64,000 nt of DNA from Mobula hypostoma (taxonomy: Eukaryota), in assembly GCF_963921235.1 (NCBI RefSeq), contig NC_086107.1:115322001-115386000 (forward strand), given 5' to 3'. The stretch's first letter is position 1, and each line of letters opens with the position of its first letter. Below the pieces are notes generated by a model that did not search any database, had not been told where the DNA came from, and was given only the letters and a program-made list of their open reading frames with translations. Both the position numbers and the translations under genes were made by a program. Of the stretch, positions 4,704 to 60,261 are shown in pieces.

Positions 4704-5097
4704 CACGTTGGAAGATCTAACTTGCAGACAGAGTAGAATATCAATGGCAGGATCTTTAGTAGCGTGGACGAGCAGAGAAACTTGGGGCACAAGTCTATTG
4801 ATCCGTCAGAGCTGTCGTGAATATTGATAGGATGTTTAAGAAGATGTAAGGATTGGGACTTTGTACCTGTGCAGTATTCTGGAGTCTGTGCAAGTTGAGT
4901 TCTTCAAAAGTTCTTTCAATGTTGCACTTGTTTTGCTATCTGTCACGTTATATGCGGTCGTAGGTGTCTGTACTGTAATACCATCAACGTTTCCATGAAA
5001 TCTCTCTCTCTCTCTGGCGTCCTCTCCTCCCCATTTCTCTCTCTCTGGATTTCTCTCCTCCCCACTCTCTCTCCTTTTCGCTCTGTTTGCCTTCCAG

Positions 5098-5400
5098 CCA
5101 CACTGCTGACGATTGTGATCCTCTCCCGAGGAAACTGCGGCCTTCCGAAGTGTATTACCGTCTCTATGAAGGCAATGGCAACAGCGGACTTACTGATCAT
5201 GAATATCAATGTAATAATATATCATAACCTAATGCGTCACTTTCCGAATTCATTCTTACCACACACCCTTGCTTGTAGGTTCCTCTTGTACCTAACTTTT
5301 GTTAACTTTGATTTGTCGGTCTGGTTTACAGTTAGCTTCACCTTTGACCGTTTTGTTGCTCTCTGTTTCCAAAAATTCAAAACGAAATATTGCACGAAGA
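5098..5400 (+). pseudogene. GPR139-like class A GPCR exon 2, truncated after TM3/ICL2 by a Penelope-like insertion
   Basis: Polypyrimidine tract plus ttccAG (5096-5097) at the same phase-1 position as the paralogs; encodes TLLTIVILSRGNCGLPKC...AMATADLL...SVWFTVSFTFDRFVALCFQKFKTKYCT; the GPCR sequence does not resume after the insertion; exon 1 not found. Confidence 0.8.
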
Positions 5401-6260
5401 ACAACAGGAATTCTGCAGATGCTGGAAATTCAAGCAACATACATCAAAGTTGCTGGTGAACGCAGCAGGCCAAGCAGCATCTATAGGAAGAGGCGCAGTC
5501 GACGTTTCAGGCCGAGACCCTTCGTCAGGACTAACTGAAGGAAGAGTGAGTAAGGGATTTGAAAGCTGGAGGGAGAGGGGGAGATGCAAAATGATAGGAG
5601 AAGACAGGAGGGGGAGGGATAGAGCCGAGAGCTGGACAGGTGATAGGCAGAAGGGGATACGAGAGGATCATGGGACAGGAGGTCCGGGAAGAAAGACGGG
5701 GGGGGGGTGACCCAGAGGATGGGCAAGAGGTATATTCAGAGGGACAGAGGGAGAAAAAGGAGAGTGAGAGAAAGAATGTGTGCATAAAAATGAGTAACAG
5801 CTGGGGTACGAGGGGGAGGTGGGGCCTAGCGGAAGTTAGAGAAGTCAATGATCATGCCATCAGGTTGGAGGCTACCCAGACGGAATATAAGGTGTTGTTC
5901 CTCCAACCTGAGTGTGGCTTCATCTTTACAGTAGAGGAGGCCGTGGATAGACATGTCAGAATGGGAATGGGATGTGGAATTAAAATGTGCGGCCACTGGG
6001 AGATCCTGCTTTCTCTGGCGGACAGAGCGTAGATGTTCAGCAAAGCGGTCTCCCAGTCTGCGTCGGGTCTCACCAATATATAAAAGGCCACACCGGGAGC
6101 ACCGGACGCAGTATATCACCCCAGTCGACTCACAGGTGAAGTGATGCCTCACCTGGAAGGACTGTTTGGGGCCCTGAATGGTGGTAAGGGAGGAACCCTC
6201 CTGGCACTTATCCGTGTAAGTGGAACAAGTGCTACACATGCCCTTACACTTCCTCCCTCA
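5401..6260 (-). mobile_element. Penelope-like retroelement, 5'-truncated, GIY-YIG endonuclease domain, with inverted 5' segment 6196-6260
   Basis: ORF 5826-6239 has GVIYCVRCSRCGLLYIGETRRRLGDRFAEH (GIY-YIG); 6197-6259 on + encodes PPGTYPCKWNKCYTCPYTSSL. Confidence 0.85.
5497..5532 (-). ncRNA. minimal hammerhead ribozyme (Penelope type)
   Basis: agtc-CTGACGA-agggtctcggcct-GAAAC-GTC-gact: intact core, stem I agtc/gact, stem II hairpin. Confidence 0.7.
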
Positions 6261-7789: not shown

Positions 7790-8326
7790 CGTGAGATGAC
7801 TTTCCAAGAGCAGCCGGTCGGTTCGCTGATGATGGGTGACAGGTCGCTCTATCCCCGGCCTTGGGTAGCAACGCAATATTTTCACAACCCCCAGTCAACA
7901 TAGACTTAAATTTTTACAATCTTACCATTTGGTGCCATATTTCGCATGGCGGCGTGGAGGGGTGAAAGACCGTAGCGTACAAAACCGCTCCCATACACCA
8001 ACAACCACACATTCACAGTAATTATTTGCCATAACTAATCCGCCAATAACACACACAGACACACACACACATACAGAGAATAACAATGAAGTTTATTAAA
8101 TCTGATGCATAAACGTTTATTTGTTTAATGCTTGCTGTTGGTCCGTTTGTCCGTTCATTTGTATCTGGTTTGGCGGTTCTGGTACGACCTCGGCAAAACC
8201 GAGGCTTTGCTTTCAGGCGGGTGCTATAAATTCTCGAGAGAAACTACACGCCGGCAGCGCGCAGAAGGGACAGATCGTGGACAATTGGGGAAGGGCGGCG
8301 TGGGAGGGCGTGAACAATGGCTGAAA

Positions 8327-9850
8327 TGTACGTAAGAGGTGGAAATAAATACAACAGACGTCATGCGATGGTTTAGAACCTGTTTAGAAATTACGATTTA
8401 TAATTGTATTACGTGGTCGGTAATACTTCCCTTGTGTGTTAATTAATTGAATTTCGCCGAGGTTGTATATACGAGTGAACGGAAAAAGGCCTCAGTGTAT
8501 CCCCTAGAGGTGGTTGGAGATAGATGGTAATTGTAGTAGGTGCCTCTGAACCAAGTTGAGGAAGGAATTGAATATTGGTTATAGTGTTTAAATATATTAT
8601 ATTATATTATACGTATTATATATTAGCTATACTTACATAATGTATAGTTTGTTTGCTGTCTCTTTCCATCACTGTACATATACTTCCACATTTTGTGACC
8701 ATGTGAAAAACTAAATAAAGCTTCTGCACCCGCTATCGCGGCGGAGTCAGTTTTTTTTCCGGGAGAAGTAGCGCCCTTACAAGGCCTTTACATCACAACT
8801 GGCTGACAGAGTGAATTTCTAAGGCGGACCCCAAGTCAGCTTGTTCAACGTTCGATTAGATCAAATTCCCCGTCCAGACCAGTCTTTTCAGCAATTTGTA
8901 GTCGAGTTTGAGAGAGTGTTTAATCTTCCAGTACGGGGTCAGTAGGTTGCCCGCGGATTCCCGGACTTGCGCCCGGGAAAAGGGGCGGCGAGGGACAATG
9001 CAGTAAGGTTCCACGCGCTTGCCGATGAGGCGGGGTTGAACGAGAGATCCCTCATTACTAATTTCCAGTATCGGCTGAGCGCCGTGGTCCGGCGTGAGAT
9101 CTCAGTGCGTGACGAACAGGACAGCCTGGATGTCCTATCAGTCTGGCTATTTGAACAGACAACCGGACAACTGTGTGGCGCAGAGAGGGAATGCCCGGAG
9201 CTTCCTACTCTTTAGATCACCGCCTGTGTTCAGCTTCTCTCTCAACACGCAGTGCACAGTCCGCGAAGGAGCACGTACCGATGGGTCATGAGCAACGACA
9301 GCAGTCTGCTGCCTCTAGTCTGGTCATCCAGGACACTTACAGGCATTATGTCTCAATCGCCCACTAAAAGAGGATAACCGTTAGCAAGAAGAGGAATTTT
9401 GATGGGTCGATTCTCCTTGCAAGCATCTTCTCCTAATCGAAAGACGCTCCCAGCTCCCCCGTCGTCTGGATCACAGACCCACGAGCTTCAAGCATTTCCT
9501 ACTATGGGACCGCCGAGACATTCGTGGACACTCTTCTGGCTCTAAGATGGGGAGCCCCCACTCAGCAACTCAATATTAATGTCAAAGCTCCGGATGGTCG
9601 TCTTCTGGGCACCGGCAGGATCAACCTTTCCGCAGCTCCAGCTTGCGCTAGAAGGCAAACAGGCACCAGCTCCCTTTCTGTCTTGTTGATTCAGTTGAAC
9701 TGCCGCTGGAGCTCGGCTCGGCCTTCCCTGCCTATGCGAAGTCGCCCACGGAAAGGCGCTCCGAGCGACAATCGGCATGTCTGTCCGCCTGACCCGGCAG
9801 CGTTCCAGCTGAATATGTTGATATTCCTGAGGTGTTAATTGAGAAGAAGG
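8327..9850 (+). mobile_element. degenerate Ty3/gypsy-type LTR retrotransposon (possible LTR 8327-8781, gag and protease remnants)
   Basis: DNAVRFHALADEAGLNERSLITNFQYRLS resembles retrotransposon gag; NVKAPDGRLLGTGRI resembles the protease region; TGTA...TTACA segment with aataaa upstream. Confidence 0.5.
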
Positions 9851-9879
9851 CCGCCTTCTTGCGCGCACACTGTGATAGT

Positions 9880-10258
9880 TACTACCCTTCTCCCTTCTCC
9901 CTTTTTCCATTCCTCCATCGGGTTACTTTTTCAGCCGGTCTCTCACCCTCATCTGCCCATCGTCCCACTCTGGTTCCCTTCAGAGTTCCCTTTCTTCCGC
10001 GGTCCTCTCCTATTCGATTACTTCTTGTTCGGCCCTTTACCTCTTCCATTCCCAACTTCTTACTTCATTCAACCACACACCCGCATTCCCCCTCACCTGG
10101 TCTGACATTGTACTTACCATCTTGAAGCCCCCCGCCCACCACCGCATTCTAACTTCAGCCCTCTTCCGTCCTAGTTCTGATGAAGGGTCTCGGCTTGAAA
10201 CCTCGTCGGTTCACTCCCTCCACAGAAGCTGCCTGACTTGTTGAGCTCCCTCAGCACT
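9880..10258 (+). mobile_element. degenerate Penelope-like 3' end
   Basis: Pyrimidine-rich tract followed by CTGATGAagggtctcggcttGAAAC and gctgcctgacttgttgag. Confidence 0.55.
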
Positions 10259-11344: not shown

Positions 11345-11749
11345 CAGTCATAGTCATAGTCATACCTTATTGATCCCGGGGGAAATTGGTTTTCGTTACA
11401 GTCGCACCATAAATAATAAATAGTAATAAAACCATAAATAGTTAAATAGTAATATGTAAATTATGCCAGGAAGTAAGTCCAGGACCAGCCTATTGGCTCA
11501 GGGTGTCTGACCCTCCAAGGGAGGAGTTGTAAAGTTTGATGGCCACAGGCAGGAATGACTTCCTATGACGCTCTGTGTTGCATCTCGGTGGAATGAGTCT
11601 CTGGCTGAATGTACTCCTGTGCCCACCCAGTACATTATGTAGTGGATGGGAGACATTGTCCAAGATGGCATGCAACTTAGACAGCATCCTCTTTTCAGAC
11701 ACCACCGTGAGAGAGTCCAGTTCCATCCCCACAACATCACTGGCCTTAC
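11345..11749 (-). mobile_element. Rex1/Babar-type LINE 3' fragment
   Basis: Encodes ...LHAILDNVSHPLH...RHRKSFLPVAIKLYN; (CTATGA)n tail; near-identical to 14462-14863. Confidence 0.75.
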
Positions 11750-11773
11750 AACTGAAGAGTATGTTTTGCTGAC

Positions 11774-11997
11774 GTTTGAAACAAAATGACTTTTGCAGGA
11801 GGAACGCCACTCGAATTTTTCATCTCTCTATCTTCCCAGAATTCCAGACTCGAGAATTTCCCAATTAACTGCCTGCACAATCAATACAGTGGGATTTGAC
11901 AGGGCTGTCGTTCTCGGTTTGTGCCTGATTGTAAAATCTCTATTTTTAACACTGCAAAACACCGTCAGTCCCTGTGGAGATCCTAAGCCGTATAAAA
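11774..11997 (+). promoter_or_regulatory. proximal promoter of GPCR gene 2: conserved upstream block, GTCCCTGTGGAGATC (11968-11982), TATA box (11991-11997)
   Basis: Same motifs in the same order and spacing upstream of the paralog at 33745-33967 (-). Confidence 0.7.
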
Positions 11998-12063
11998 ATG
12001 CTGGCATTTTCTGTGCGAAAGGCTCATGCAGAGGGTAATTGAACTCCTCCTTTTGCAGAGAAA

Positions 12064-12130
12064 ATGCTGGAAAGATATTTAAGTGCGGAGAAAATTTTGT
12101 ACGTGATTATTGTTGTCGTTGGAGTTCCCG
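12064..12130 (+). CDS. GPR139-like class A GPCR, exon 1 (MLERYLSAEKILYVIIVVVGVP)
   Basis: ATG at 12064 downstream of TATA; donor G|gtaagt at 12131; homologous to exon 1 of the paralog at 33600-33666. Confidence 0.85.
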
Positions 12131-12570
12131 GTAAGTGTTTAGAACAAACAAAAGTTTATTTTAAAAAATCTGTGTTAAATATTATAAGTTACTAACATAA
12201 ATTACGTTCTAATATACCAATGGCGCGGTTTTCATGGGTCGCCGGACAGCTCGGAAGTCTGACGGAGAGGGGAAGATGCTGTTGTTAAATCTTTGAGCGT
12301 GGTTTTTCAGGCTGCCAGTGACGGTAAGACGGAATATCTCGGGTGGTGGGGAACTTTAGTAATGAATTAAGCTTCCTTGAGTGATAGATACCGGCTGGCG
12401 GCTGCCTGTATTTCATGCCAGCCATTCGCTGCACACACTACTTCTTCTGCCCTGAAGCAGGGCAGGTTGGGCAGATAAGCAGCCACGCACCATTTCCGAT
12501 CTTTAGCCGTGTTCAGACGTAGAGAATGTTTTCACTGATGTCCCTTGTCTGTTCTCTTCTGTTTCTCCAG

Positions 12571-13544
12571 TGAATTTAGTTGCGATTGTGATTCTGTCCC
12601 AGGGAAACTGCGGTCTCGCCACTTGCACCACTCACTACCTCGTGGCCATGGCAGTGGCCGATCTACTGGTCATTATCATTGAGGTCATTTTATTTCAAAT
12701 CAATTATCTTTACTCGCCGTGGTCTTTACTGAACGTCACGCCAGCGTGCAGAGTTATTAATGCACTGACGTTTACATCAAGAAATTGTTCCGTCTGGTTC
12801 ACCGTCACCTTCACCGTTGATCGCTTCATCGCAATTTGTTGCCAAAAGCTGCGGACCAAGTATTGCACCGAGAAAACTGCGGCTACGGTTTTAGCAACAA
12901 CCAGTATTCTGCTCTGTCTGAAAAATGCTCCCTTCTACTTCACATACGAACCCGCAAAGATCATCGACAACGTAACGTGGGGCTGTTCAGTCAAGGACTC
13001 CTATTACACTGACCCAGGGTGGGTGGCGTTTGACTGGTTCAGCAGGGTTCTAACTCCGTTAATCCCTTTCGCCGTAATCCTGCTGCTCAACGCTCTGACG
13101 GTCAGGCGCATCTTAGTGGCCAGTCGAGTCCGCAAAGGGCTGAGGGGTCAGAGCGAGGGGAGGAAACTCGGTGACCCGGAGATGGAGAGCAGGAGGAGGT
13201 CCGTGGTTTTACTCCTCACGCTCTCCTTCAGCTTCATCCTACTATGGCTGACGATTGTGGTAGAGTTCGTCTATTATCAAATCACAGGAAATGCAGCAGG
13301 TCGGAATGATTCGGAAACGATCTTTCATTTTGTTGGCTACATGCTGAGTAACGTTAGCTGCTGCACCAACACGTTCGTTTATGCGGTGACTCAGGCGAAG
13401 TTTAGGGAGCAGGTGACGAACGCGGTGAAATATCCGGTCAACTGTGTGCTGCCGTTTATTATAACGTTGCGCACTAAGCGAATCCCATCAGTTCTGTTGA
13501 TGAACTCGAAAGACTACGGACCGAATCAATTTCGCCTTTCTTGA
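12571..13544 (+). CDS. GPR139-like class A (rhodopsin-like) 7TM GPCR, exon 2; spliced product 346 aa
   Basis: Acceptor ttctccAG at 12569-12570, 440-nt phase-1 intron; GVPVN (TM1), AVADLL (TM2), DRF (TM3), ECL2 Cys, TM7 CTNTFVY, helix 8 KFREQ; no internal stops. Confidence 0.9.
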
Positions 13545-14424: not shown

Positions 14425-14863
14425 CCCGGGAATTGTACCAACAGAATCAACAAACTCATTCGTAAGGCCAGTGATGTTGTGGGGATGGAACTGGACTCTC
14501 TCACGGTGGTGTCTGAAAAGAGGATGCTGTCTAAGTTGCATGCCATCTTGGACAATGTCTCCCATCCACTACATAATGTACTGGGTGGGCACAGGAGTAC
14601 ATTCAGCCAGAGACTCATTCCACCGAGATGCAACACAGAGTGTCATAGGAAGTCATTCCTGCCTGTGGCCATCAAACTTTATAACTCCTCCCTTGGAGGG
14701 TCAGACACCCTGCGCCAATAGGCTGGTCCTGCACTTATTCCCTGGCATAATTTAGATATTACTATTTAATATTTTTGGTTTTATTACTATTTAATTATTT
14801 ATGGTGCAACTGTAACGAAAACCAATTTCCCCCGGAATCAATAGAGTATGACTATGACTATGA
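14425..14863 (+). mobile_element. Rex1/Babar-type LINE 3' fragment
   Basis: Same C-terminal peptide and (CTATGA)n tail as 11345-11749; 19-bp TSD atgacgcagtc(a/g)gtccgca at 14406-14424 and 14860-14878. Confidence 0.8.
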
Positions 14864-15725
14864 CGCAGTCGGTCCGCATTCTTAAAGGCAGGAACTAGGA
14901 ACAGTTAAGTGGGAATAGCTGTAGTTGGGCAAGTCTATGCGTTACATGTGCAGGTTATTGAAAGACAAACTGCACACAATACAATAGAATATGTTCCAAA
15001 ACAATAGCAATGACAAGGATGACGAGGTAAGGGAAGTTTGAATGCCGAAAGAGGTAGTGAATATAGTCGTAGTGTAATAGGTTACAACAGTACTGACGCA
15101 GGACGTTCGGCCCACTTAGTCCGTTCCAACCTGTGCACTCCCAGTCCCATCTGCCTATTACCTGACCATAGCCCTCCACGCCCTTCTGATTCTTGTATCT
15201 TTCGACACTTCTCCAAATTTTGCAATTAACTCCGCATCCGCCACTTCCACTGGCAGCTTATTCTACAATCGCATCACTCTCGGAGTTAAGAAGATTCCCC
15301 TCAGAGCCCACTCAAATATTTCGCTCTTCACCCTGAACCTATGACGTCTAATTCTCGCCCGATCCAGTCTCTGGCGGAGAAGCCTCCGTGTATTTAGCAC
15401 GTGTTGCTGCAGCCAAACCAAACCAAACCAAAACCAAAACATGAACAATTCCTGCTCCCGGCGACACCACGGATTGGTTATACCTGCATAATAGCCCTCA
15501 CTCAATAATGACTGCTCCAAAAGTCCGTGATATCTATATCAATCCTGATTAACAATTAGCAAGCGAACAATCTTGGCGCAATGAAATGTAAGCGTATCGT
15601 ACTGTAAGCTAAGCGTAATTAAGCTTTATATTCCGACATTGAGTGTTAGCAAAGGATATGAAACCCGCCGATCCCAAACTACAAACTGCCTAGAACAAAG
15701 CATGAATATTTATTTAAAATATTTA

Positions 15726-31457: not shown

Positions 31458-32347
31458 TCATGGCGCGGCTTTATTAATGAAATGAAGAACTGAGGTGACC
31501 GGATACTTCACCGCGCTCTTCACCTGCTCCCTGAACTTGGACTGAGTCAGTGCGTAAACAAATGTGTTTGTGCAGCAGCTGAAATTCCTCAGCAAATACC
31601 CGACGTAGTGAAAGATCCATTCGGAATCATTGTCATCTGTCCCTGTGATCTGATAATAGATGAATTCTATAACCACTGTCATCCACAGGAAGATGAAGCT
31701 GACGGAGAGGGTGAAGAGTAAAACGACGGACCGTCTCCTGCTCTCCATCTCAGGGTCACTGCGGTTCTCCCTCTTGGTATGAACTCTCAGCCCCTCACGG
31801 ACCCGGCTGGCCACTATAATGTGCCTGACTGTCAGAACGTTGAACAGCAAAATTGCAGCGAAGGGGAGGAACGGAGTTAAAACTGTATCAAACCAGTCAA
31901 ATTTCACCCAGCCGGGGTCAGTGAAATAACTTTCCACCGTTGCACAGAACCACGGTACGTTGTTGATTATCTCTCTGGGTTCTCGGGGAACGTTTTTCAG
32001 ACAGCATAGAACGACAGTTGTTGTTAGAACCGCAGCCGCAGTTTTCCCGGTGCAATATTTCATTTTCAGTCTCCAGCAGCAAATGGCGATAAAGCGATCA
32101 AAGGTGAAAGTGCCGGTGAACCAGACGGAACAGTCCATGGCTGTGAACCTCAGCACGTCGGGAAAACTGCACACAGGGGTGATCTCCAGGAAAGTCCCCG
32201 GAAAATAATGAGAAGTGACCCGATGCAAAATGATTTCGGTGACAATGGTCAGTAGATCCGCCGCTGCCGTGGCCACCAGGTAGCGAGTGGTGTAGGTGGA
32301 GAGGCCGCACTTCCCCCGGGACAAGATCACAACCGCCGCTATGTTCA
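31458..32347 (-). pseudogene. GPR139-like GPCR gene 3, exon 2 (open frame; gene has a nonsense codon in exon 1)
   Basis: Acceptor ctcttcAG at 32349-32348; 7TM paralog of 12571-13544 with DRF, DPEMESRRRSVVLL and CTNTFVY; 4-aa deletion after TM4 (KNVPREP vs KNAPFYFTYEP). Confidence 0.8.
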
Positions 32348-33599: not shown

Positions 33600-33666
33600 C
33601 AGGAGCTCCAATGGCGGCAGTGATTGACTACAATATTTTCTCTACGCTGATATATCCTTCAAGCAT
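33600..33666 (-). pseudogene. GPR139-like GPCR gene 3, exon 1 (MLEGYISVEKIL*SITAAIGAP) with premature TAG
   Basis: ATG at 33666, donor G|gtaagt at 33599, same 67-nt length as gene 2 exon 1; TAG at 33630-33628 where the paralog has TAC. Confidence 0.85.
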
Positions 33667-33744: not shown

Positions 33745-33967
33745 TTTTATACCATTTAACGATCTCCACAGGGACAGATTTCAACAGAGCTAAAATATAT
33801 AAAACAATAGAAACTAATTGTTTCAGTCAAATGAATACTCCGGGGGGACAGATTGTAATTAATTCGCTGAATTTATTATCAAACTCCAAACAATGGAAAT
33901 TGTGACAGTACTGAGAGATGTAAATTGGAAGCGACGCTCTTCCAGCAAAACGAATATTGTTTCAAAC
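33745..33967 (-). promoter_or_regulatory. proximal promoter of GPCR gene 3: TATA (33751-33745), GTCCCTGTGGAGATC (33775-33761), upstream conserved block
   Basis: Homologous to 11774-11997. Confidence 0.7.
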
Positions 33968-34523
33968 ACCAGCAGATCAACTTCTCCACCTCACGTTGTG
34001 CGTGTGATCACTACAATCTGCTTCATTCAGTGAGACATTCGCAAATGTCCGAAGGCTTCTCAGGGCTTATGCCTTCCGAGTTAGAAAGTGGACTGTGCGA
34101 TTCATAGGTTGAGTAATTAGCTTAACAGTCCGGAGGTACAACGGCCCGGCCACTCTGATTCTCCACTCACGATGAGCGCGGCTGTAACCTCGATCTCACT
34201 CTCGACATCAACAGCCGTTTTGCATGAAATATATCGAACTTAGTCCTGGATCGAAAACAAAATAAAATTCTCCGTCTTCATCACCATTAAAGGAATCATG
34301 CAGTGTGAAAAAGAAACGTTGCTGCCTTATAATTATTTCGCACCTCGATGGAACATGGTATACTGTACAAAGGATACAGAGCACATCAGACTACAAGGAA
34401 ACACAGGCAGATGACAGGGCAGAATTGTAGTCTGTGGTTGAGTCCAAGTGTAACATAGGGCCAAGATCGAAAAGGGCGATGAATATAGGACTGAGGGCGT
34501 TATATTTGAATGTACCTAGTATA

Positions 34524-42018: not shown

Positions 42019-45000
42019 TCAGAACCCAGCCTTCCCTCCATACCCCCTGACCCCTGTAGCCACAAGGGCCATATCTAACTTCCTTTTAAACATAGCTAAT
42101 GAACTGGCCTCAACAGTTTGCTGTGGCAGAGAATTCCACAGATTCACCACTCTCTGTGTGAAGAAGTTTTTCCTAACCTCGGTCCTAAAAGGCTTCCCCT
42201 CTATCCTCAAACTGTGACCCCTCGTTCTAGACCTCCCCAACATCGGGAACAATCTTCCTGCGTCTAGCCTGTCCAATCCCTTTAGGATCTTATACGTTTC
42301 AATCTTCTAAATTCCAACGAGTACAAGCCCAGTTCATCCAGTCTTTCTTCATATGAAAGACCTGCCATCCCAGGAATCAATCTGGTGAACCTTCTTTGTA
42401 CTCCCTCTATGGCAAAGATGTCTTTCCTCAGATTAGGGGACCAAAACTGCACACAATACTCCAGGTATGGTCTCACCAAGGCCTTGTACAACTGCAGTAG
42501 TACCTCCCTGCTCCTGTACTCGAATCCTCTCGCTATAAATGCCAGCATACCGTTCGCCTTTTTCACCGCCTGCTGTACCTGCATGCCCACTTTCAATGAC
42601 TGGTGTATAATGACACCCAGGTCTCGTTGCACCTCCCCTTTTCCTAATCGGCCACCATTCAGATAATAATCTGTTTTCCTATTTTTGCCACCAAAGTGGA
42701 TAACTTCACATTTATCCACATTAAATTGCATCTGCCATGAATTTGCCCACTCACCCAACCTATCCAAGTCACCCTGCATCCTCTTAGCATCCTCCTCACT
42801 GCTAACACTGCCACCCAGCTTTGTGTCATCCGCAAACTTGGAGATGCTGCATTTAATTCCCTCATCCAAGTCATTAATATATATTGTAAACAACTGGGGT
42901 CCCAGCACTGAGCCTTGCGGTACCCCACTAGTCACCGCCTGCCATTCTGAAAAGGTCCCGTTTATTCCCACTCTTTGCTTCCTGTCTGTTAACCAATTCT
43001 CCACCCACACCAATACCTTACCCCCAATACCGTGTGCTTTAAGTTTGCACACTAATCTCCTGTGTGGGACCTTGTCAAAAGCCTTTTGAAAATCCAAATA
43101 TACCACATCCACTGGTTCTCCCCTATCCACTCTACTAGTTACATCCTCAAAAAATTCTATGAGATTCGTCAGACATGATTTTCCTTTCACAAATCCATGC
43201 TGACTTTGTCCGATCATTTCACCGCTTTCCAAATGTGCTGTTATCACATCCTTGATAACTGACTCCAGCAGTTTCCCCACCACCGACGTTAGGCTAACCG
43301 GCCTATAATTCCCCGGTTTCTCTCTCCCTCCTTTTTTAAAAAGTGGGGTTACATTAGCCACCCTCCAATCCTCAGGAACTAGTCCAGAATCTAACGAGTT
43401 TTGAAAAATTATCACTAATGCATCCACTATTTCTTGGGCCACTTCCTTAAGCACTCTGGGATGCAGACCATCTGGCCCCGGGGATTTATCTGCCTTCAAT
43501 CCCTTCAATTTACCTAACACCACTTCCCTACTAACATGTATTTCGCTCAGTTCCTCCATCTCACTGGACCCTCTGTCCCTTACTATTTCTGGAAGATTAT
43601 TTATGTCCTCCTTAGTGAAGACAGAACCAAAGTAATTATTCAATTGGTCTGCCATGTCCTTGCTCCCCATAATCAATTCACCTGTTTCTGTTTGCAGGGG
43701 ACCTACATTTGTCTTTATCAGTCTTTTCCTTTTTACATATCTATAAAAGCTTTTACAGTCCGTTTTTATGTTCTCTGCCAGTTTTCTCTCATAATCTTTT
43801 TTCCCCTTCCTAATTAAGCCCTTTGTCCTCCTCTGCTGAACTCTGAATTTCTCCCAGTCCTCAGGTGAGCCACTTTCTCTGGCTAATTTGTATGCTACTT
43901 CTTTGGAATTGATACTATCCCTAATTTCTCTTGTCAGCCACGGGTGCACTACCTTCCTTGATTTATTCTTTTGCCAAACTGGGATGAACAATTGTTGTAG
44001 TTCATCCATGCAATCTTTAAATGCTTGCCATTGCATATCCACCGTCAATCCTTGAAGTGTCATTTGCCAGTCTATCTTAGCTAATTCACGTCTCATACCT
44101 TCAAAGTTACCCCTCTTCAGAACCTTTGTTTCTGAATTAACTGCGTCACTCTCCATGTTAATGAAGAATTCCACCATATTATGGTCACTCTTACCCAAGG
44201 GGCCTCTCACAACAAGATCGCTAATTAACCCTTCCTCATTGCTCAAAACCCAGTCCAGAATAGCCTGCTGCTCAAAACCCAGTCCAGAATAGCCTGCTCT
44301 CTAGTCGGTTCCTCGACATGTTGGTTCAAAAAACCATCCCGCATACATTCCAAGAAATCCTCTTCCTCAGCACCTTTACCAATTTGGTTCACCCAGTCTA
44401 CATGTAGATTGAAGTCACCCATTATAACTGCTGTTCCTTTATTGCACACATTTCTAATTTCCTGTTTAATACCATCTCCGACCTCACTACTACTGTTAGG
44501 TGGCCTGTACACAACTCCCACCAGCGTCTTCTGCCCCTTAGTGTTACGCAGCTCTACCCATATCGATTCCACATCTTCCCGGCTTATGTCCTTCCTTTCT
44601 ATTGCGTTAATCTCTTTTTTAACCAGCAACGCCACCCCACCTCCCCTTCCTTCATGTCTATCCCTCCTGAATATTGAATATCCCTGAACGTTGAGCTCCC
44701 ATCCCTGGTCACCCTGGAGCCATGTCTCTGTGATCCCAACTATATCATAATCATTAATAACAATCTGCACTTTCAATTCATCCACCTTATTACGAATGCT
44801 CCTTGCATTGACACATAAAGCCTTCAGGCGCTCTTTTACAACTCTCTTAGCCCTTTTTAATGCTTGCCCTGGATTTGTCGGCCTGCCACTTTTACTTTTC
44901 CCCTTTGTACTTTTTGCTTCTACGCTCACTTTACACCCCTCTGTCTCTCTGCACTGGTTCCCATCCCTCTGTTGTGAACTAACCTCCTCACACCTAGCCG

Positions 45001-45025
45001 CTTTAATTTGATTCCCACCCCCCAA
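42019..45025 (-). pseudogene. CR1 ORF2 (APE endonuclease plus reverse transcriptase), disrupted
   Basis: 29-bp tandem duplication at 44240-44297 and 16-bp deletion at about 42300, both frameshifting. Confidence 0.9.
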
Positions 45026-45030
45026 CCATT

Positions 45031-45966
45031 CTAGTTTAAAGTCACCTCAGTAGCCCCCGCTAATCTCCCTGCCAGGATATTGGTCCCCCTAGGATTTAAG
45101 TGTAACCCGTCCTTTTTGTACAGGTCACACCTGCGCCAAAAGAGGTCCCAATGATCCAAAAACTTGAATCCCTGCCCCCTGCTCCAATCCCTCAGCCACG
45201 CATTTATCCTCCACCTCATCGCATTCCTACTCTCACTGTCGCGTGGCACAGGCAGTAATCCCAAGATTACTACCTTTGCGGTCCTTTTTCTCAACTCCCT
45301 TCCTAGCTCCCTATATTCTTCTTTCAGGACCTCATCCCTTTTCCTACCTATGTCATTGGTACCTATATGTACCAGGACCTCTGGCTCTTCACCCTCCCAC
45401 TTCAGGATATCTTGGACACGATCAGAAATATCCCGGACCCTGGCACCAGGGAGGCAAACTACCATCCGAGTCTCTGGACTGCGTCCACAGAATCGCCTAT
45501 CTGACCCCCTTACTATCGAGTCCCCTATCACAACTGCCCTCCTCTTCCTTGCCCTACCCTTCTGAGCTACAGGGCCAGACTCTGTGCCGGAGGCAGGGCC
45601 ACTGTCGCTTCCCCCGGGTAAGCTGTCCCCCCCAACAGTACTCAAACAGGAGTACCTGTTGTTAAGGGGCACAGCCGCCGGGGTACTCCCCATCACCTGC
45701 CTTTTCCCCTTCCCCCTCCTAACCGTGACCCACTTGTCTGCCTCCCGTGGCCCCGGCGTGACCACCTGCCTTCCACTCCTCTCTATCACCTCCTCACTCT
45801 CCCTGACCAGACGAAGGTCATCGAGCTGCAGCTCCAGTTCCGTAACGCGGTCCCTTAGGAGCTGCATCTCGATGCACTTGGCGCAGATGTAGACGTCCGG
45901 GAGGCTTGGAGACTCCAGGGCCTCCCACATCCGACACCGAGAACAGCAAACTGCCCTCACAGTCAT
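45031..45966 (-). CDS. CR1 ORF1: Zn-finger, coiled coil and SGNH esterase domain (311 aa)
   Basis: CSRC..CAKC, heptad repeat, GDSIVRG, HIGTND, DGLHLN. Confidence 0.9.
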   Translation of the reverse strand: MTVRAVCCSRCRMWEALESPSLPDVYICAKCIEMQLLRDRVTELELQLDDLRLVRESEEVIERSGRQVVTPGPREADKWVTVRRGKGKRQVMGSTPAAVPLNNRYSCLSTVGGDSLPGGSDSGPASGTESGPVAQKGRARKRRAVVIGDSIVRGSDRRFCGRSPETRMVVCLPGARVRDISDRVQDILKWEGEEPEVLVHIGTNDIGRKRDEVLKEEYRELGRELRKRTAKVVILGLLPVPRDSESRNAMRWRINAWLRDWSRGQGFKFLDHWDLFWRRCDLYKKDGLHLNPRGTNILAGRLAGATEVTLN

Positions 45967-53412: not shown

Positions 53413-56390
53413 TCAGAACCCAGCCTTCCCTCCATACCCCCTGACCCCTGTAGCCACAAGGGCCATATCTAACTTCCTTTTAAACATAGCTAATGAACTG
53501 GCCTCAACAGTTTGCTGTGGCAGAGAATTCCACAGATTCACCACTCTCTGTGTGAAGAAGTTTTTCCTAACCTCGGTCCTAAAAGGCTTCCCCTCTATCC
53601 TCAAACTGTGACCCCTCGTTCTAGACCTCCCCAACATCGGGAACAATCTTCCTGCATCCAGCCTGTCCAATCCCTTTAGGATCTTATACGTTTCAATCTT
53701 CTAAATTCCAACGAGTACAAGCCCAGTTCATCCAGTCTTTCTTCATATGAAAGACCTGCCATCCCAGGAATCAATCTGGTGAACCTTCTTTGTACTCCCT
53801 CTATGGCAAAGATGTCTTTCCTCAGATTAGGGGACCAAAACTGCACACAATACTCCAGGTGTGGTCTCACCAAGGCCTTGTACAACTGCAGTAGTACCTC
53901 CCTGCTCCTGTACTCGAATCCTCTCGCTATAAATGCCAGCATACCGTTCGCCTTTTTCACCGCCTGCTGTACCTGCATGCCCACTTTCAATGACTGGTGT
54001 ATAATGACACCCAGGTCTCGTTGCACCTCCCCTTTTCCTAATCGGCCACCATTCAGATAATAATCTGTTTTCCTATTTTTGCCACCAAAGTGGATAACTT
54101 CACATTTATCCACATTAAATTGCATCTGCCATGAGTTTGCCCACTCACCCAACCTATCCAAGTCACCCTGCATCCTCTTAGCATCCTCCTCACTGCTAAC
54201 ACTGCCACCCAGCTTTGTGTCATCCGCAAACTTGGAGATGCTGCATTTAATTCCCTCATCCAAGTCATTAATATATATTGTAAACAACTGGGATCCCAGC
54301 ACTGAGCCTTGCGGTACCCCACTAGTCACCGCCTGCCATTCTGAAAAGGTCCCGTTTATTCCCACTCTTTGCTTCCTGTCTGTTAACCAATTCTCCACCC
54401 ACACCAATACCTTACCCCCAATACCGTGTGCTTTAAGTTTGCACACTAATCTCCTGTGTGGGACCTTGTCAAAAGCCTTTTGAAAATCCAAATATACCAC
54501 ATCCACTGGTTCTCCCCTATCCACTCTACTAGTTACATCCTCAAAAAATTCTATGAGATTCGTCAGACATGATTTTCCTTTCACAAATCCATGCTGACTT
54601 TGTCCGATCATTTCACCGCTTTCCAAATGTGCTGTTATCACATCCTTGATAACTGACTCCAGCAGTTTCCCCACCACCGACGTTAGGCTAACCGGCCTAT
54701 AATTCCCCGGTTTCTCTCTCCCTCCTTTTTTAAAAAGTGGGGTTACATTAGCCACCCTCCAATCCTCAGGAACTAGTCCAGAATCTAACGAGTTTTGAAA
54801 AATTATCACTAATGCATCCACTATTTCTTGGGCCACTTCCTTAAGCACTCTGGGATGCAGACCATCTGGCCCTGGGGATTTATCTGCCTTCAATCCCTTC
54901 AATTTACCTAACACCACTTCCCTACTAACATGTATTTCGCTCAGTTCCTCCATCTCACTGGACCCTCTGTCCCTTACTATTTCTGGAAGATTATTTATGT
55001 CCTCCTTAGTGAAGACAGAACCAAAGTAATTATTCAATTGGTCTGCCATGTCCTTGCTCCCCATAATCAATTCACCTGTTTCTGTTTGCAGGGGACCTAC
55101 ATTTGTCTTTATCAGTCTTTTCCTTTTTACATATCTATAAAAGCTTTTACAGTCCGTTTTTATGTTCTCTGCCAGTTTTCTCTCATAATCTTTTTTCCCC
55201 TTCCTAATTAAGCCCTTTGTCCTCCTCTGCTGAACTCTGAATTTCTCCCAGTCCTCAGGTGAGCCACTTTCTCTGGCTAATTTGTATGCTACTTCTTTGG
55301 AATTGATACTATCCCTAATTTCTCTTGTCAGCCACGGGTGCACTACCTTCCTTGATTTATTATTTTGCCAAACTGGGATGAACAATTGTTGTAGTTCATC
55401 CATGCAACCTTTAAATGCCTGCCATTGCATATCCACCGTCAATCCTTGAAGTGTCATTTGCCAGTCTATCTTAGCTAATTCACGTCTCATACCTTCAAAG
55501 TTACCCCTCTTCAGAACCTTTGTTTCTGAATTAACTGCGTCACTCTCCATGTTAATGAAGAATTCCACCATATTATGGTCACTCTTACCCAAGGGGCCTC
55601 TCACAACAAGATCGCTAATTAACCCTTCCTCATTGCTCAAAACCCAGTCCAGAATAGCCTGCTCTCTAGTCGGTTCCTCGACATGTTGGTTCAAAAAACC
55701 ATCCCGCATACATTCCAAGAAATCCTCTTCCTCAGCACCTTTACCAATTTGGTTCACCCAGTCTACATGTAGATTGAAGTCACCCATTATAACTGCTGTT
55801 CCTTTATTGCACACATTTCTAATTTCCTGTTTAATACCATCTCCGACCTCACTACTACTGTTAGGTGGCCTGTACACAACTCCCACCAGCGTCTTCTGCC
55901 CCTTAGTGTTACGCAGCTCTACCCATATCGATTCCACATCTTCCCGGCTTATGTCCTTCCTTTCTATTGCGTTAATCTCTTTTTTAACCAGCAACGCCAC
56001 CCCACCTCCCCTTCCTTCATGTCTATCCCTCCTGAATATTGAATATCCCTGAACGTTGAGCTCCCATCCCTGGTCACCCTGGAGCCATGTCTCTGTGATC
56101 CCAACTATATCATAATCATTAATAACAATCTGCACTTTCAATTCATCCACCTTATTACGAATGCTCCTTGCATTGACACATAAAGCCTTCAGGCGCTCTT
56201 TTACAACTCTCTTAGCCCTTTTTAATGCTTGCCCTGGATTTGTCGGCCTGCCACTTTTACTTTTCCCCTTTGTACTTTTTGCTTCTACGCTCACTTTACA
56301 CCCCTCTGTCTCTCTGCACTGGTTCCCATCCCTCTGTTGTGAACTAACCTCCTCACACCTAGCCGCTTTAATTTGATTCCCACCCCCCAA
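53413..56390 (-). pseudogene. CR1 ORF2 (endonuclease plus RT; 904-aa frame 53676-56390) with frameshifted C-terminus
   Basis: NARS, ETW, YRPP, GDFN, SDHN, PQGSVLG and FADD motifs intact; a 16-bp deletion at about 53694 cuts off the C-terminal about 100 aa. Confidence 0.9.
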
Positions 56391-56395
56391 CCATT

Positions 56396-57331
56396 CTAGT
56401 TTAAAGTCACCTCAGTAGCCCCCGCTAATCTCCCTGCCAGGATATTGGTCCCCCTAGGATTTAAGTGTAACCCGTCCTTTTTGTACAGGTCACACCTGCG
56501 CCAAAAGAGGTCCCAATGATCCAAAAACTTGAATCCCTGCCCCCTGCTCCAATCCCTCAGCCACGCATTTATCCTCCACCTCATCGCATTCCTACTCTCA
56601 CTGTCGCGTGGCACAGGCAGTAATCCCGAGATTACTACCTTTGCGGTCCTTTTTCTCAACTCCCTTCCTAGCTCCCTATATTCTTCTTTCAGGACCTCAT
56701 CCCTTTTCCTACCTATGTCATTGGTACCTATATGTACCAGGACCTCTGGCTCTTCACCCTCCCACTTCAGGATATCTTGGACACGATCAGAAATATCCCG
56801 GACCCTGGCACCAGGGAGGCAAACTACCATCCGAGTCTCTGGACTGCGTCCACAGAATCGCCTATCTGACCCCCTTACTATCGAGTCCCCTATCACAACT
56901 GCCCTCCTCTTCCTTGCCCTACCCTTCTGAGCTACAGGGCCAGACTCTGTGCCGGAGGCAGGGCCACTGTCGCTTCCCCCGGGTAAGCTGTCCCCCGCAA
57001 CAGTACTCAAACAGGAGTACCTGTTGTTAAGGGGCACAGCCGCCGGGGTACTCCCCATCACCTGCCTTTTCCCCTTCCCCCTCCTAACCGTGACCCACTT
57101 GTCTGCCTCCCGTGGCCCCGGCGTGACCACCTGCCTTCCACTCCTCTCTATCACCTCCTCACTCTCCCTGACCAGACGAAGGTCATCGAGCTGCAGCTCC
57201 AGTTCCGTAACGCGGTCCCTTAGGAGCTGCATCTCGATGCACTTGGCGCAGATGTAGACGTCCGGGAGGCTTGGAGACTCCAGGGCCTCCCACATCCGAC
57301 ACCGAGAACAGCAAACTGCCCTCACAGTCAT
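56396..57331 (-). CDS. CR1 ORF1 esterase-domain protein, copy 2
   Basis: Near-identical to 45031-45966. Confidence 0.9.
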   Translation of the reverse strand: MTVRAVCCSRCRMWEALESPSLPDVYICAKCIEMQLLRDRVTELELQLDDLRLVRESEEVIERSGRQVVTPGPREADKWVTVRRGKGKRQVMGSTPAAVPLNNRYSCLSTVAGDSLPGGSDSGPASGTESGPVAQKGRARKRRAVVIGDSIVRGSDRRFCGRSPETRMVVCLPGARVRDISDRVQDILKWEGEEPEVLVHIGTNDIGRKRDEVLKEEYRELGRELRKRTAKVVISGLLPVPRDSESRNAMRWRINAWLRDWSRGQGFKFLDHWDLFWRRCDLYKKDGLHLNPRGTNILAGRLAGATEVTLN

Positions 57332-60261
57332 AATGCCCCTCTTCTCAAATAGCAACAGAAAATGAATGTCAAACCTTCCTCGCCTCGCCCGTTTCTGCCT
57401 AAGCCCGGTGAGCCGAAGCCCTTAAGTCTTCACTCTGCTCCCGGCTCACTCCGCTGCCCGCAAACTACGCTGCCCGCTCTCTGAGGCTCTGTTCCTTTTA
57501 AATCTGCCGCGCTGCACTGCCCGACGAAAATTTCAAAAATCTCTTTCTCGGCACTCCCACTCAGACTCTCAGACTCCTTCTTCGAATCAAATCCGAAGCA
57601 GGATGTCTGCCCTTTTAAATCTGCCGCGCTGCACTGCCCGACGTCACACGCCTGCGCAGTCCCGCCTCTCAGAAAGCCGTTGGAGAAAAAAAATAACGAA
57701 AATTTCAAAAATCTCTTTCTCGGCAATCCCACTCAGACTCTCAGACTCCTTCTTCGAATGAGGGGTTGAAAGGTATAAAAGGCTATTCCTTTGTGTAAGG
57801 CGGAGCAGGGTCGAGACCCCCGCTTAAGATACAGACTGGCAGAGAGCAGGGAGACTGTTGGAACAAGCTGCTGGGCACTTGGAATTCTGCTTCGGCGTTG
57901 TATCCGATCAGCTGATAATTATTTATTCCTCTGCATTTTATTGAAGTGGTTAATGTGCAGCTTTCACAAGTCTAATAAAGTAGTCTTATATCACTCAACA
58001 GTGTATAATGTCTCCTTTGTTTGTAAAAGAATCTTCAAAAGGTGGTGCCTGGAGAAGGCGGAATGTATCATGAAGAATCAACGCCATGAAGGCTTTTCAT
58101 TGGTACCATCGGGGAGGAGGTACAGCGGCCTGAAGACGAACACTCATCGTTTTAGGAACAGTTTCTTCCCCGTCGCCGTCGTTCCTGAATGGTGCGTGGA
58201 TGATGAACACTATCTCATTATTCCTCGTTGTCATGGTTATTTATTTCACTTCATTGCCACGTTTTGTAACACATCTGTTTTGCACTGTACTGCGGCACAA
58301 AACAACAAATCTGACGATACGTGTCACTGATAATTAAATGTGATTCTGATTCTGAGCAGCATTTCTTGCTGAATCGGGTTAGGACATAGACGGACTTTAG
58401 AATAATAAATTGCGCTCCCAATATTAGAGAGCTGGAAAGGACAGTGTTTCTAACACGTTGACACCCGGGCCCTGAACATGAAAGAGTTGTGTATGTAGAA
58501 GCACGTTACACCTGTTTCGCGTGGACGAGTCAGTCGCTCGCACTGTGGCGCCTAAACGCAACGAACAAGTGAAAATTTCACCCGATGTAGCTCAACACCG
58601 TGTCGCAGAAAGGGCAACTCATGCATTGCACCCGGCGCTCAGGTACCCCTGTCCGAAACAACTAACTGAAGTCCATCAAACGAGTTTTTCATTCTTCGAC
58701 AGGTGGGTTTGGGAATTGTAGCGAGGACACTCGGCACTTGAGTCTCATCTGGGCCAGGTTGTATTGTCCTCGTGTCACACTTAGAAAGAAGCGAATACTC
58801 TAGTTCATGTAAAAAATGTAAATCTAAATCCAACCACATTCTTCGCTACTGATGGGACAATGCTCATTGCTTAATTATAACCAGTCCGGTAGTTCATCAT
58901 TCACACCTGCAGATAACAAATAAAGAACCCAGATGAATTAAACGTAGAAATATTATTAACTTGATAGTGAAAGTCAACACGACTTAACTGTAATTGCTGT
59001 GGCTTTCCGCGCGTTCAGAGAGGGAGAGAAAGAGAGGCAAAATGGAAACGCCGTTTTAAATAGACACATTCTTTCGCAGATGATCGATCGGCAAAATAAA
59101 ACAAACCAAATTCCAGAACGGCTGCCGTTCCAGTTTCCTGATTGGTAAGACATTAGCCATGGTTGAAACTTAGGTCACGATTTGTTTTATCTCTTGGATA
59201 TCAACAGGTACTTGGGGCTGATGAAATGTGGACAACTGCTACAGTTATTCCTTCTTCTAAGGCGACCATGCCAAGTCTCTGCTGAGAACTGACCTGGCAG
59301 GCAACTGAAATGTCAGGATTATCCGGAGCTTCTCTCCGAGAGTTTATGACCTCCCATCCCTTCCCTTCCAATTTGGTACTTTGGTAGCTTTTGGTACATT
59401 GGCCTTTACTAATCAAAGTATTGAGTATAAGAGCTGGAATGTTATGATGAGGTTGTATAAGGCATTGGTGAGGCCGAATCTGGAGTATTGTGTTCAGTTT
59501 TGGTCACCAAATTACAGAAAGGATATAAATAAGGTTGAAAGAGTGCAGAGAAGGTTTACAAGGATGTGGCCAGGACTTGAGAAACTCAGTTACAGAGAAA
59601 GGTTGAATAGGTTAGGACTTTATTCCCTGGAGCATGGAAGAATGAGGGGAGATTTGATAGAGGTATATAAAATTATGATGGGTATAGATAGAGTGAATGC
59701 AAGCAGGCTTTTTCTACTGAGGCAAGGGGAGAAAAAAACCAGAGGACATGGATTAAGGTGGGGGAGGAGTTTAAAGGGAACATTAGTGGGGGCTTCTTCA
59801 CACAGACAGTGGTGGGAGTATGGAATGAGCTGCCAGACGAGGTGGTAAATGCGGGTTCTTTTTTAACATTTAAGAATAAATTGGACAGATACATGGATGG
59901 GAGGTGTATGAAGGGATATGGTCCGTGTGCAGGTCAGTGGGACTAGGCAGAAAATGGTTCGGCACAGCCAAGAAGGGCCAAAAAGCCTGTTTCTGTGCTG
60001 TAGTCTATGGTTTCTGTGGTTTCTATGGTTCTAATTAAACGTACCCGTTCAGCAGTTGTGTTTACTTATTCAATCATCTGGCCTGGGGATTACGCCTTAG
60101 ACCCAGCGACGATGAAGGAACAGCGAAGTACTTCCAAGTCGAGTTTATAAACGAGCGGGATGCCATTCTCCAGCATTTGCAGGTACTCCTCGTGCTCTAC
60201 AATATTAGAGCCGCCGAGGCAGGTAACTTGCCCTGGCCCTGGCACCTTAGCTGCGTGCTAT

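Follow-up and report, generated by a model that had tools for sequence, protein, structure and literature searches.

The region upstream of gene 2, one of three related receptor genes in the 64-kb stretch of DNA analyzed here (the window), is homologous to that upstream of the neighboring gene 3, with motif spacing kept and conservation concentrated in blocks. We interpret the shared sequence as a putative conserved TATA promoter with an adjacent candidate activator site. With moderate confidence, we propose that a GPR139-like gene passed its proximal promoter to both copies when it duplicated, and that a few short blocks of this ancestral promoter have since been held under purifying selection in each.

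Receptor genes of the window

The window consists of repeat-rich DNA, in which genes 1, 2, and 3 represent a single family of rhodopsin-class GPCRs. Exon 1 of gene 2 (12064–12130, forward strand) spans 67 nt, corresponding to 22 codons plus one nucleotide, ends at a phase-1 GT donor, and scores 31.7 bits against an exon-1 profile. Joined across an intron of 440 nt to exon 2 (12571–13544, forward strand), for which 7tm_1 is the sole Pfam match, it yields an open frame of 346 amino acids that reads as a GPR139-like rhodopsin-class GPCR. Gene 3 lies in the same cluster, ~20 kb away on the reverse strand, with exon 1 at 33600–33666, an intron of 1252 nt, and exon 2 at 31458–32347. The exon 2 frame is open, with gaps of four and two residues relative to gene 2, and exon 1 contains a TAG at codon 13 (33630–33628); given this stop codon and the four-residue deletion, gene 3 is probably a pseudogene. 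Gene 1 is a remnant comprising the front part of exon 2 (5085–5405, forward strand), with a repeat cutting into the rest. Its exon 1 was sought with the exon-1 profile and its promoter by homology with nhmmer, and neither was found in the window; the promoters present are those of genes 2 and 3 only.

The proteins of genes 2 and 3 are identical at 203 of 319 residues (64%) and their four-fold degenerate sites at 61 of 96 positions (63.5%), with a K2P distance of 0.51 and dS of 0.60–0.69. A quick tree of 53 chosen rows (51 of 288 proteins plus genes 2 and 3), which gives coarse placement only, put both genes inside a ray/skate protein clade (SH-aLRT 100), suggesting that the window comes from a ray-like elasmobranch, and assigned them to different subclades (SH-aLRT 91 and 92).

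Layout and homology of the shared upstream region

The exact 15-mer described in the initial annotation was confirmed at 11968–11982 (forward strand) and 33775–33761 (reverse strand); no other exact copy, and none with one or two mismatches, was found in the 64-kb window. After a spacer of 8 nt in gene 2 and 9 nt in gene 3, it is followed by TATAAAA, located in gene 2 at 11991–11997, 73 nt before the ATG, and in gene 3 at 33751–33745, so that 15-mer and TATA box together occupy 33745–33775. Farther upstream, a distal conserved block (11764–11828, forward strand, in gene 2; 33913–33985, reverse strand, in gene 3; z 9.1) contains GTTTGAAACAA (11774–11784 and 33967–33957), TTTTGC, GGA, and CATCTCTC. 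Relative to the ATG of genes 2 and 3, GTTTGAAACAA lies at -290 and -301 and CATCTCTC at -243 and -254, respectively. GCAGAGAAA immediately precedes the ATG in both genes, which have the start-codon context GCAGAGAAAATG in common (12055–12066, forward strand, in gene 2). These distal and start-codon elements were likewise found where they had been reported. In gene 2, promoter homology is bounded upstream by a truncated repeat (11348–11749, reverse strand; 96% identical to 14456–14864), with ~15 nt separating the two. The repeat may be read as the 3' end of a LINE-like element that carries a short tail of tandem repeats.

Similarity between the two upstream regions extends well beyond these motifs. 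In the alignment of 11756–12063 with 33985–33667, 191 of the 292 columns are identical (65.4%; z 10.6); this whole 308-bp stretch is homologous, and the motifs do not stand alone in unrelated DNA. In contrast, other non-coding DNA of the two genes is not homologous: the introns, already described as largely unrelated, could not be aligned over 100 nt at either end (z 0.7 at the start and 1.2 at the end, against shuffles), and neither could the 200 nt of 3' flank that follow the coding match (z -0.8). The loss of intron homology may have occurred by insertions instead of point changes.

Five motifs share one diagonal, with offsets of +11 for GTTTGAAACAA, TTTTGC, and CATCTCTC, +13 for the 15-mer, and +12 for TATA; the spacing of distal block, 15-mer, and TATA box is preserved within 2 nt over 220 nt. 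The motif order reported previously is correct, but AATTAA, ACAATC, and ATTTGAC (11861–11900, forward strand, in gene 2) lie off this diagonal (offsets -3, +3, and -4), are unpaired in both alignments, and lack homology to the similar words of gene 3; their likeness between the genes is probably due to chance. As the whole ~300-bp region is homologous at the level of four-fold sites, the order of motifs reflects inheritance rather than a code.

Based on this layout, we propose a focused RNA polymerase II promoter in which TBP would bind TATAAAA and transcription would begin ~27–35 nt beyond TATA, giving a leader of 40–60 nt. The TATA spacing predicts a start near 12018–12026 in gene 2, and in gene 3 a CTCA ~27 nt past the TATA start matches what we take to be an initiator-like sequence. 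The 15-mer beside TATA is probably a real switch: lying approximately one helical turn ahead of the TATA box, it would bind a sequence-specific activator, and the distal block, ~200 nt further up, is a candidate site for a second factor. Together, both factors would confer the same cell-type expression on the paralogues. Two ATGs are located between the TATA box and the start codon of gene 2, at 11998 and 12026; the latter opens an out-of-frame 18-codon frame running into exon 1 and is missing in organism F, one of the two orthologue species discussed below.

Candidate factors binding the 15-mer

The initial annotation had interpreted the 15-mer as an EBF/Olf-1-like (O/E) site and paired it with a homeodomain-like site, by analogy with odorant receptor (OR) promoters. 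Under this explanation, EBF would bind the 10-mer at 11969–11978, a Lhx2/Emx2-type factor would bind TAAT, and the whole family would be expressed sparsely in chemosensory neurons; we consider this unlikely. An EBF reading of the site itself is possible. Compared with TCCCyngrgar, the O/E core defined in MatBase (PMC3247239, Table 1), the site has 10 of 11 letters in agreement, including an intact TCCC; its orientation is the same in the two genes, and the 10-mer is unchanged in organisms B and F. It lies less than 200 bp from the predicted start, a range that contains a conserved O/E site in 246 of 314 mouse OR promoters (PMC3247239, section 6). However, the available sections of PMC4512700 give ATTCCCNNGGGAAT as the in vitro consensus of EBF, of which the site contains 8 of the 12 specified letters. 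They also report that 97% of 559 peaks of Collier carried CCCnnGGGA, found with MEME; the site breaks this motif with a T in place of the first G.

Near-matches are also common. There are 34 sites per 64 kb that match TCCCyngrgar at 10 or more of 11 letters (both strands, counted without matrix scoring), 20 of which have an intact core. The 10-mer is one mismatch from TCCCNNGGGA, with 21 equally good sites per 64 kb, and the two exact copies of TCCCNNGGGA in the window are found in a repeat and in coding DNA. By chance, a near-match is expected in about one promoter-sized stretch in ten, and the two copies of the 15-mer are one evolutionary observation. For the homeodomain site, the alignments place it outside the shared module: the AATTAA words are not homologous, CCAATTAA is found only in gene 2, and the 64-kb window contains 62 occurrences of AATTAA/TTAATT, AATTAA having a background of 0.29 per 300 nt.

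The receptor family is large and clustered and includes many dead copies, features that are typical of chemoreceptor families and favor the OR-like explanation. Against it, almost every olfactory neuron of the catshark is microvillous, and ORs are not expressed in these cells (available sections of PMC10116579), making the OR program of ciliated neurons a weak analogy. Moreover, EBF is described as active in B cells and other neurons as well, and since it acts in several tissues, EBF binding alone would not name the tissue; any link of the 15-mer to smell neurons is a guess. EBF/COE is the leading named candidate for binding the 15-mer, and a tentative one that we think somewhat doubtful. Its case is strengthened because the longest conserved run coincides with an O/E-like word and the predicted start is less than 200 bp away, and weakened because conservation extends beyond the 10-mer, because no homeodomain partner exists in the shared set, and by the catshark findings. 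The MatBase DICE consensus was set aside as an alternative: it has TCTCCACAG in common with the reverse strand, but of the five letters preceding this word, one matches.

Conservation compared with neutral expectation

Constraint on the shared region appears likely from the distribution of conserved runs, which has to be weighed against a neutral relic. In that case, the region would be a leftover of duplication in a slowly evolving genome, with only TATA and start context mattering and the 15-mer being the longest run to arise by chance; we judge this quite improbable. It would account for the overall promoter identity, which is approximately equal to that of four-fold sites (65.4% versus 63.5%). 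In a simulation restricted to substitutions, with identity set at 63.5%, 11% of the 300-nt trials produced a run of 15 and 39% a 31-nt window with at least 26 matches. We also simulated neutral evolution with indels, assumed to amount to 8% of substitutions, using 1500 pairs per distance; this simulation has no rate variation along the sequence, and its P values therefore lean low. A run of at least 15 nt had probabilities of 0.08, 0.02, and 0.011 at d of 0.5, 0.6, and 0.7, respectively, such that the 15-mer is compatible with chance at the lower distance estimate (P 0.08–0.11).

Other aspects of the alignment are harder to reconcile with neutrality. Seven runs of 8 nt or longer were observed, whereas the probability of at least seven was 0.013, 0.0007, and 0 at the same three distances (P ≤ 0.013), and that of two runs of at least 11 nt, one of them of 15, was 0.03 to 0.0007. 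In addition, all other non-coding homology has been lost and the longest run adjoins TATA. The similarity thus exceeds chance clearly when compared with unrelated sequences and moderately when compared with paralogues at such distance.

We then compared 11756–12250 with orthologues from two other species, organisms B and F. The comparison used DNA-type contigs from four of 24 listed sequencing runs, one of which, X1, may come from the source of the window and is not independent. The organism B sequence covers the entire region with 11 other letters and one gap, and that of organism F covers 11764–12140 with 26 other letters (24 among those listed) and three gaps. In both species, promoter and intron diverge at the same rate (23/300 versus 6/67 in F; 8/308 versus 3/120 in B). 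Four of the 31 promoter changes in B and F fall within the 78 motif bases, compared to 8.1 expected, a difference that is not significant (P 0.066) in a test biased in its favor by the choice of motifs. GTTTGAAACAA, TTTTGC, AATTAA, the EBF-like 10-mer, TATAAAA, and the start context are unchanged in both species, whereas ACAATC is changed in B, ATTTGAC in F, and CATCTCTC at position 11825 in both. The 15-mer has no changes in F, for which the chance is 0.30 over 15 nt at that divergence, and its last base is altered in B, as the neutral explanation would permit. Since B and F both differ at 11825, part of the exact agreement of CATCTCTC with gene 3 arose recently by coincidence.

Patchy gene conversion homogenizing short tracts near the gene start would fit both this base, where the window agrees with gene 3, and the location of the genes 20 kb apart in one cluster, but is very unlikely given that no identical run is longer than 15 nt in the promoter or 19 nt in the coding sequence, that the genes belong to different subclades, and that the 15-mer core is already identical in F. 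We favor an inherited promoter partly under purifying selection. The notion of a promoter module of the paralogues is supported by its block-like conservation, kept spacing, and persistence beyond that of introns and 3' flanks, but not by overall identity or orthologue divergence; these two points, together with the probable death of gene 3, speak against selection.

Evidence from other paralogues

The earlier proposal of a family-wide module extends beyond genes 2 and 3 for the start-codon context, but the rest of the promoter is known from these two genes. AAATG is present at the start in seven of the ten paralogue loose ends that reach the ATG, among the matches listed (24 of 44, including some orthologous pairs). 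Two gene models read through into sequence resembling the gene 3 leader: the N-terminus of a skate model is alike at 6 of 9 residues, and that of a Mobula model at 4 of 4 residues just after TATA and 5 of 9 before the ATG. A search with the Mobula N-terminus gave eight matches, with the extension only in the two Mobula models. The translated 15-mer was sought in the read-through of 271 proteins, none of which reaches the 15-mer, and no match was found at the right place; a PVEI match sits at the start of exon 1 and was rejected as chance.

No further promoter of the family was found in the collections scanned. The sequencing-run contigs compared contained no other paralogue promoter at 80% likeness or above, and a further species, organism D, contributed exon-1 pieces only. 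All seven metagenome matches to the exon-1/donor pattern were unrelated, with no tblastn match to 120 homologues, and none of the candidates from protein scans of viral contigs (4) and prokaryote genomes (48) was confirmed. The start of the gene 3 intron (33599–33570, reverse strand) is similar to that of several other paralogues, with TTCATG ~10–16 nt after the donor; that of gene 2 has diverged.

Receptor family and comparison with known promoters

A search with exon 2 of gene 2 identified 1902 clusters at 90% identity from among 4399 candidates. Among the best 120 of these clusters, 117 carry a species name, all of them shark, ray, or skate; 113 of the 117 are named GPR139, and 61 of the 120 derive from one shark, Heterodontus francisci. 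Clustering at 50% left 112 representatives at E ≤ 1e-30, of which ten were looked up: four are from elasmobranchs, three are from a salamander, a coelacanth, and a teleost at 30–34% identity, and three have no species name. The genes resemble vertebrate GPR139/GPR142 in that human GPR139 is the best solved-structure match of gene 2 and in their database names. However, this match is distant (40.6 bits, E 1.8e-9, compared with >420 bits for elasmobranch paralogues), the lineage has multiplied many times in sharks and rays, and the nearest non-elasmobranch relatives found are the three at 30–34% identity. A one-to-one GPR139 orthologue was rejected on the 40.6-bit score, human GPR139 being absent from the tree. 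GPR139/142 have been described as kin of the protostome MIP/sex-peptide and FMRFamide-type receptors (available sections of PMC8514136), and the Atlas neighbors agree with this kinship. A divergent subfamily (P0157, P0176, P0213, P0244, P0250, P0251, P0255) has long N-termini with repeated NVT-type motifs, which are candidate glycosylation sites; exon 1 of genes 2 and 3 encodes 22 residues.

The closest parallel to the shared promoter is found in mouse V1R genes, whose subfamilies retain homologous promoters among paralogues (Stewart and Lane 2007, PMC1955453, in its available sections). Like the ray genes, V1Rs form a clustered, expanded GPCR family with homologous promoter DNA and candidate shared motifs near the start. 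They differ in having regions of ~1 kb, mapped starts, many genes, and one coding exon, compared with 300 bp, two genes, a predicted start, a TATA box 73–85 nt before the ATG, and a split coding region in the ray. By analogy, the ray promoter may work like the conserved promoters of V1R subfamilies.

Mouse OR promoters (Young et al. 2011, PMC3247239; review PMC5318403; both in their available sections) share with the ray genes the O/E-like word <200 bp from the predicted start and the TATA box, which is called in a 39% subset of OR promoters (PMC3247239). The ray genes differ from them in encoding receptors other than ORs, in matching O/E imperfectly, and in lacking a homeodomain word common to the paralogues. 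The promoter departs from the OR type in two defining features, namely that the gene is GPR139-like with an intron in its coding region and that the homeodomain site is unshared.

Sharks and rays have been described with very small smell-receptor repertoires, yet their GPR139-like family is strongly expanded. In the catshark, the smell repertoire comprises 34 V2R genes and 4–9 genes in each other family (available sections of PMC10116579). We found no account of the elasmobranch GPR139-like expansion or its promoter in the literature covered, which leaves out most subscription journals and includes the available sections of PMC12294341 and PMC11979771. The family could constitute an unrecognized chemosensory repertoire, larger than the known one, in which a compact TATA and EBF-type promoter would direct sparse expression in sensory neurons; we regard this as a long shot. 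If true, an unrelated receptor lineage would have convergently taken up the O/E logic known from mammalian OR promoters. If the 15-mer does not bind EBF, the region would remain an ordinary case of promoter conservation after gene duplication. A short shared promoter also offers a handle for finding which cells use the family, through reporters and genome scans.

Other features of the window

The region 35453–64000 consists of ~2.5 tandem copies of a ~11.3-kb unit, composed largely of repeats and 98–99.7% identical, and may be a recent segmental duplication or an assembly artifact. The tandem unit contains a LINE, named from its translation, with an open reverse-transcriptase-like frame of 911 amino acids (53676–56411, reverse strand) and an upstream frame of 341 amino acids (56396–57421, reverse strand); in the copy at 42282–45046, the long frame is split. 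Fragments at 8000–10100 read as gag and protease of an LTR retroelement in short, broken frames.
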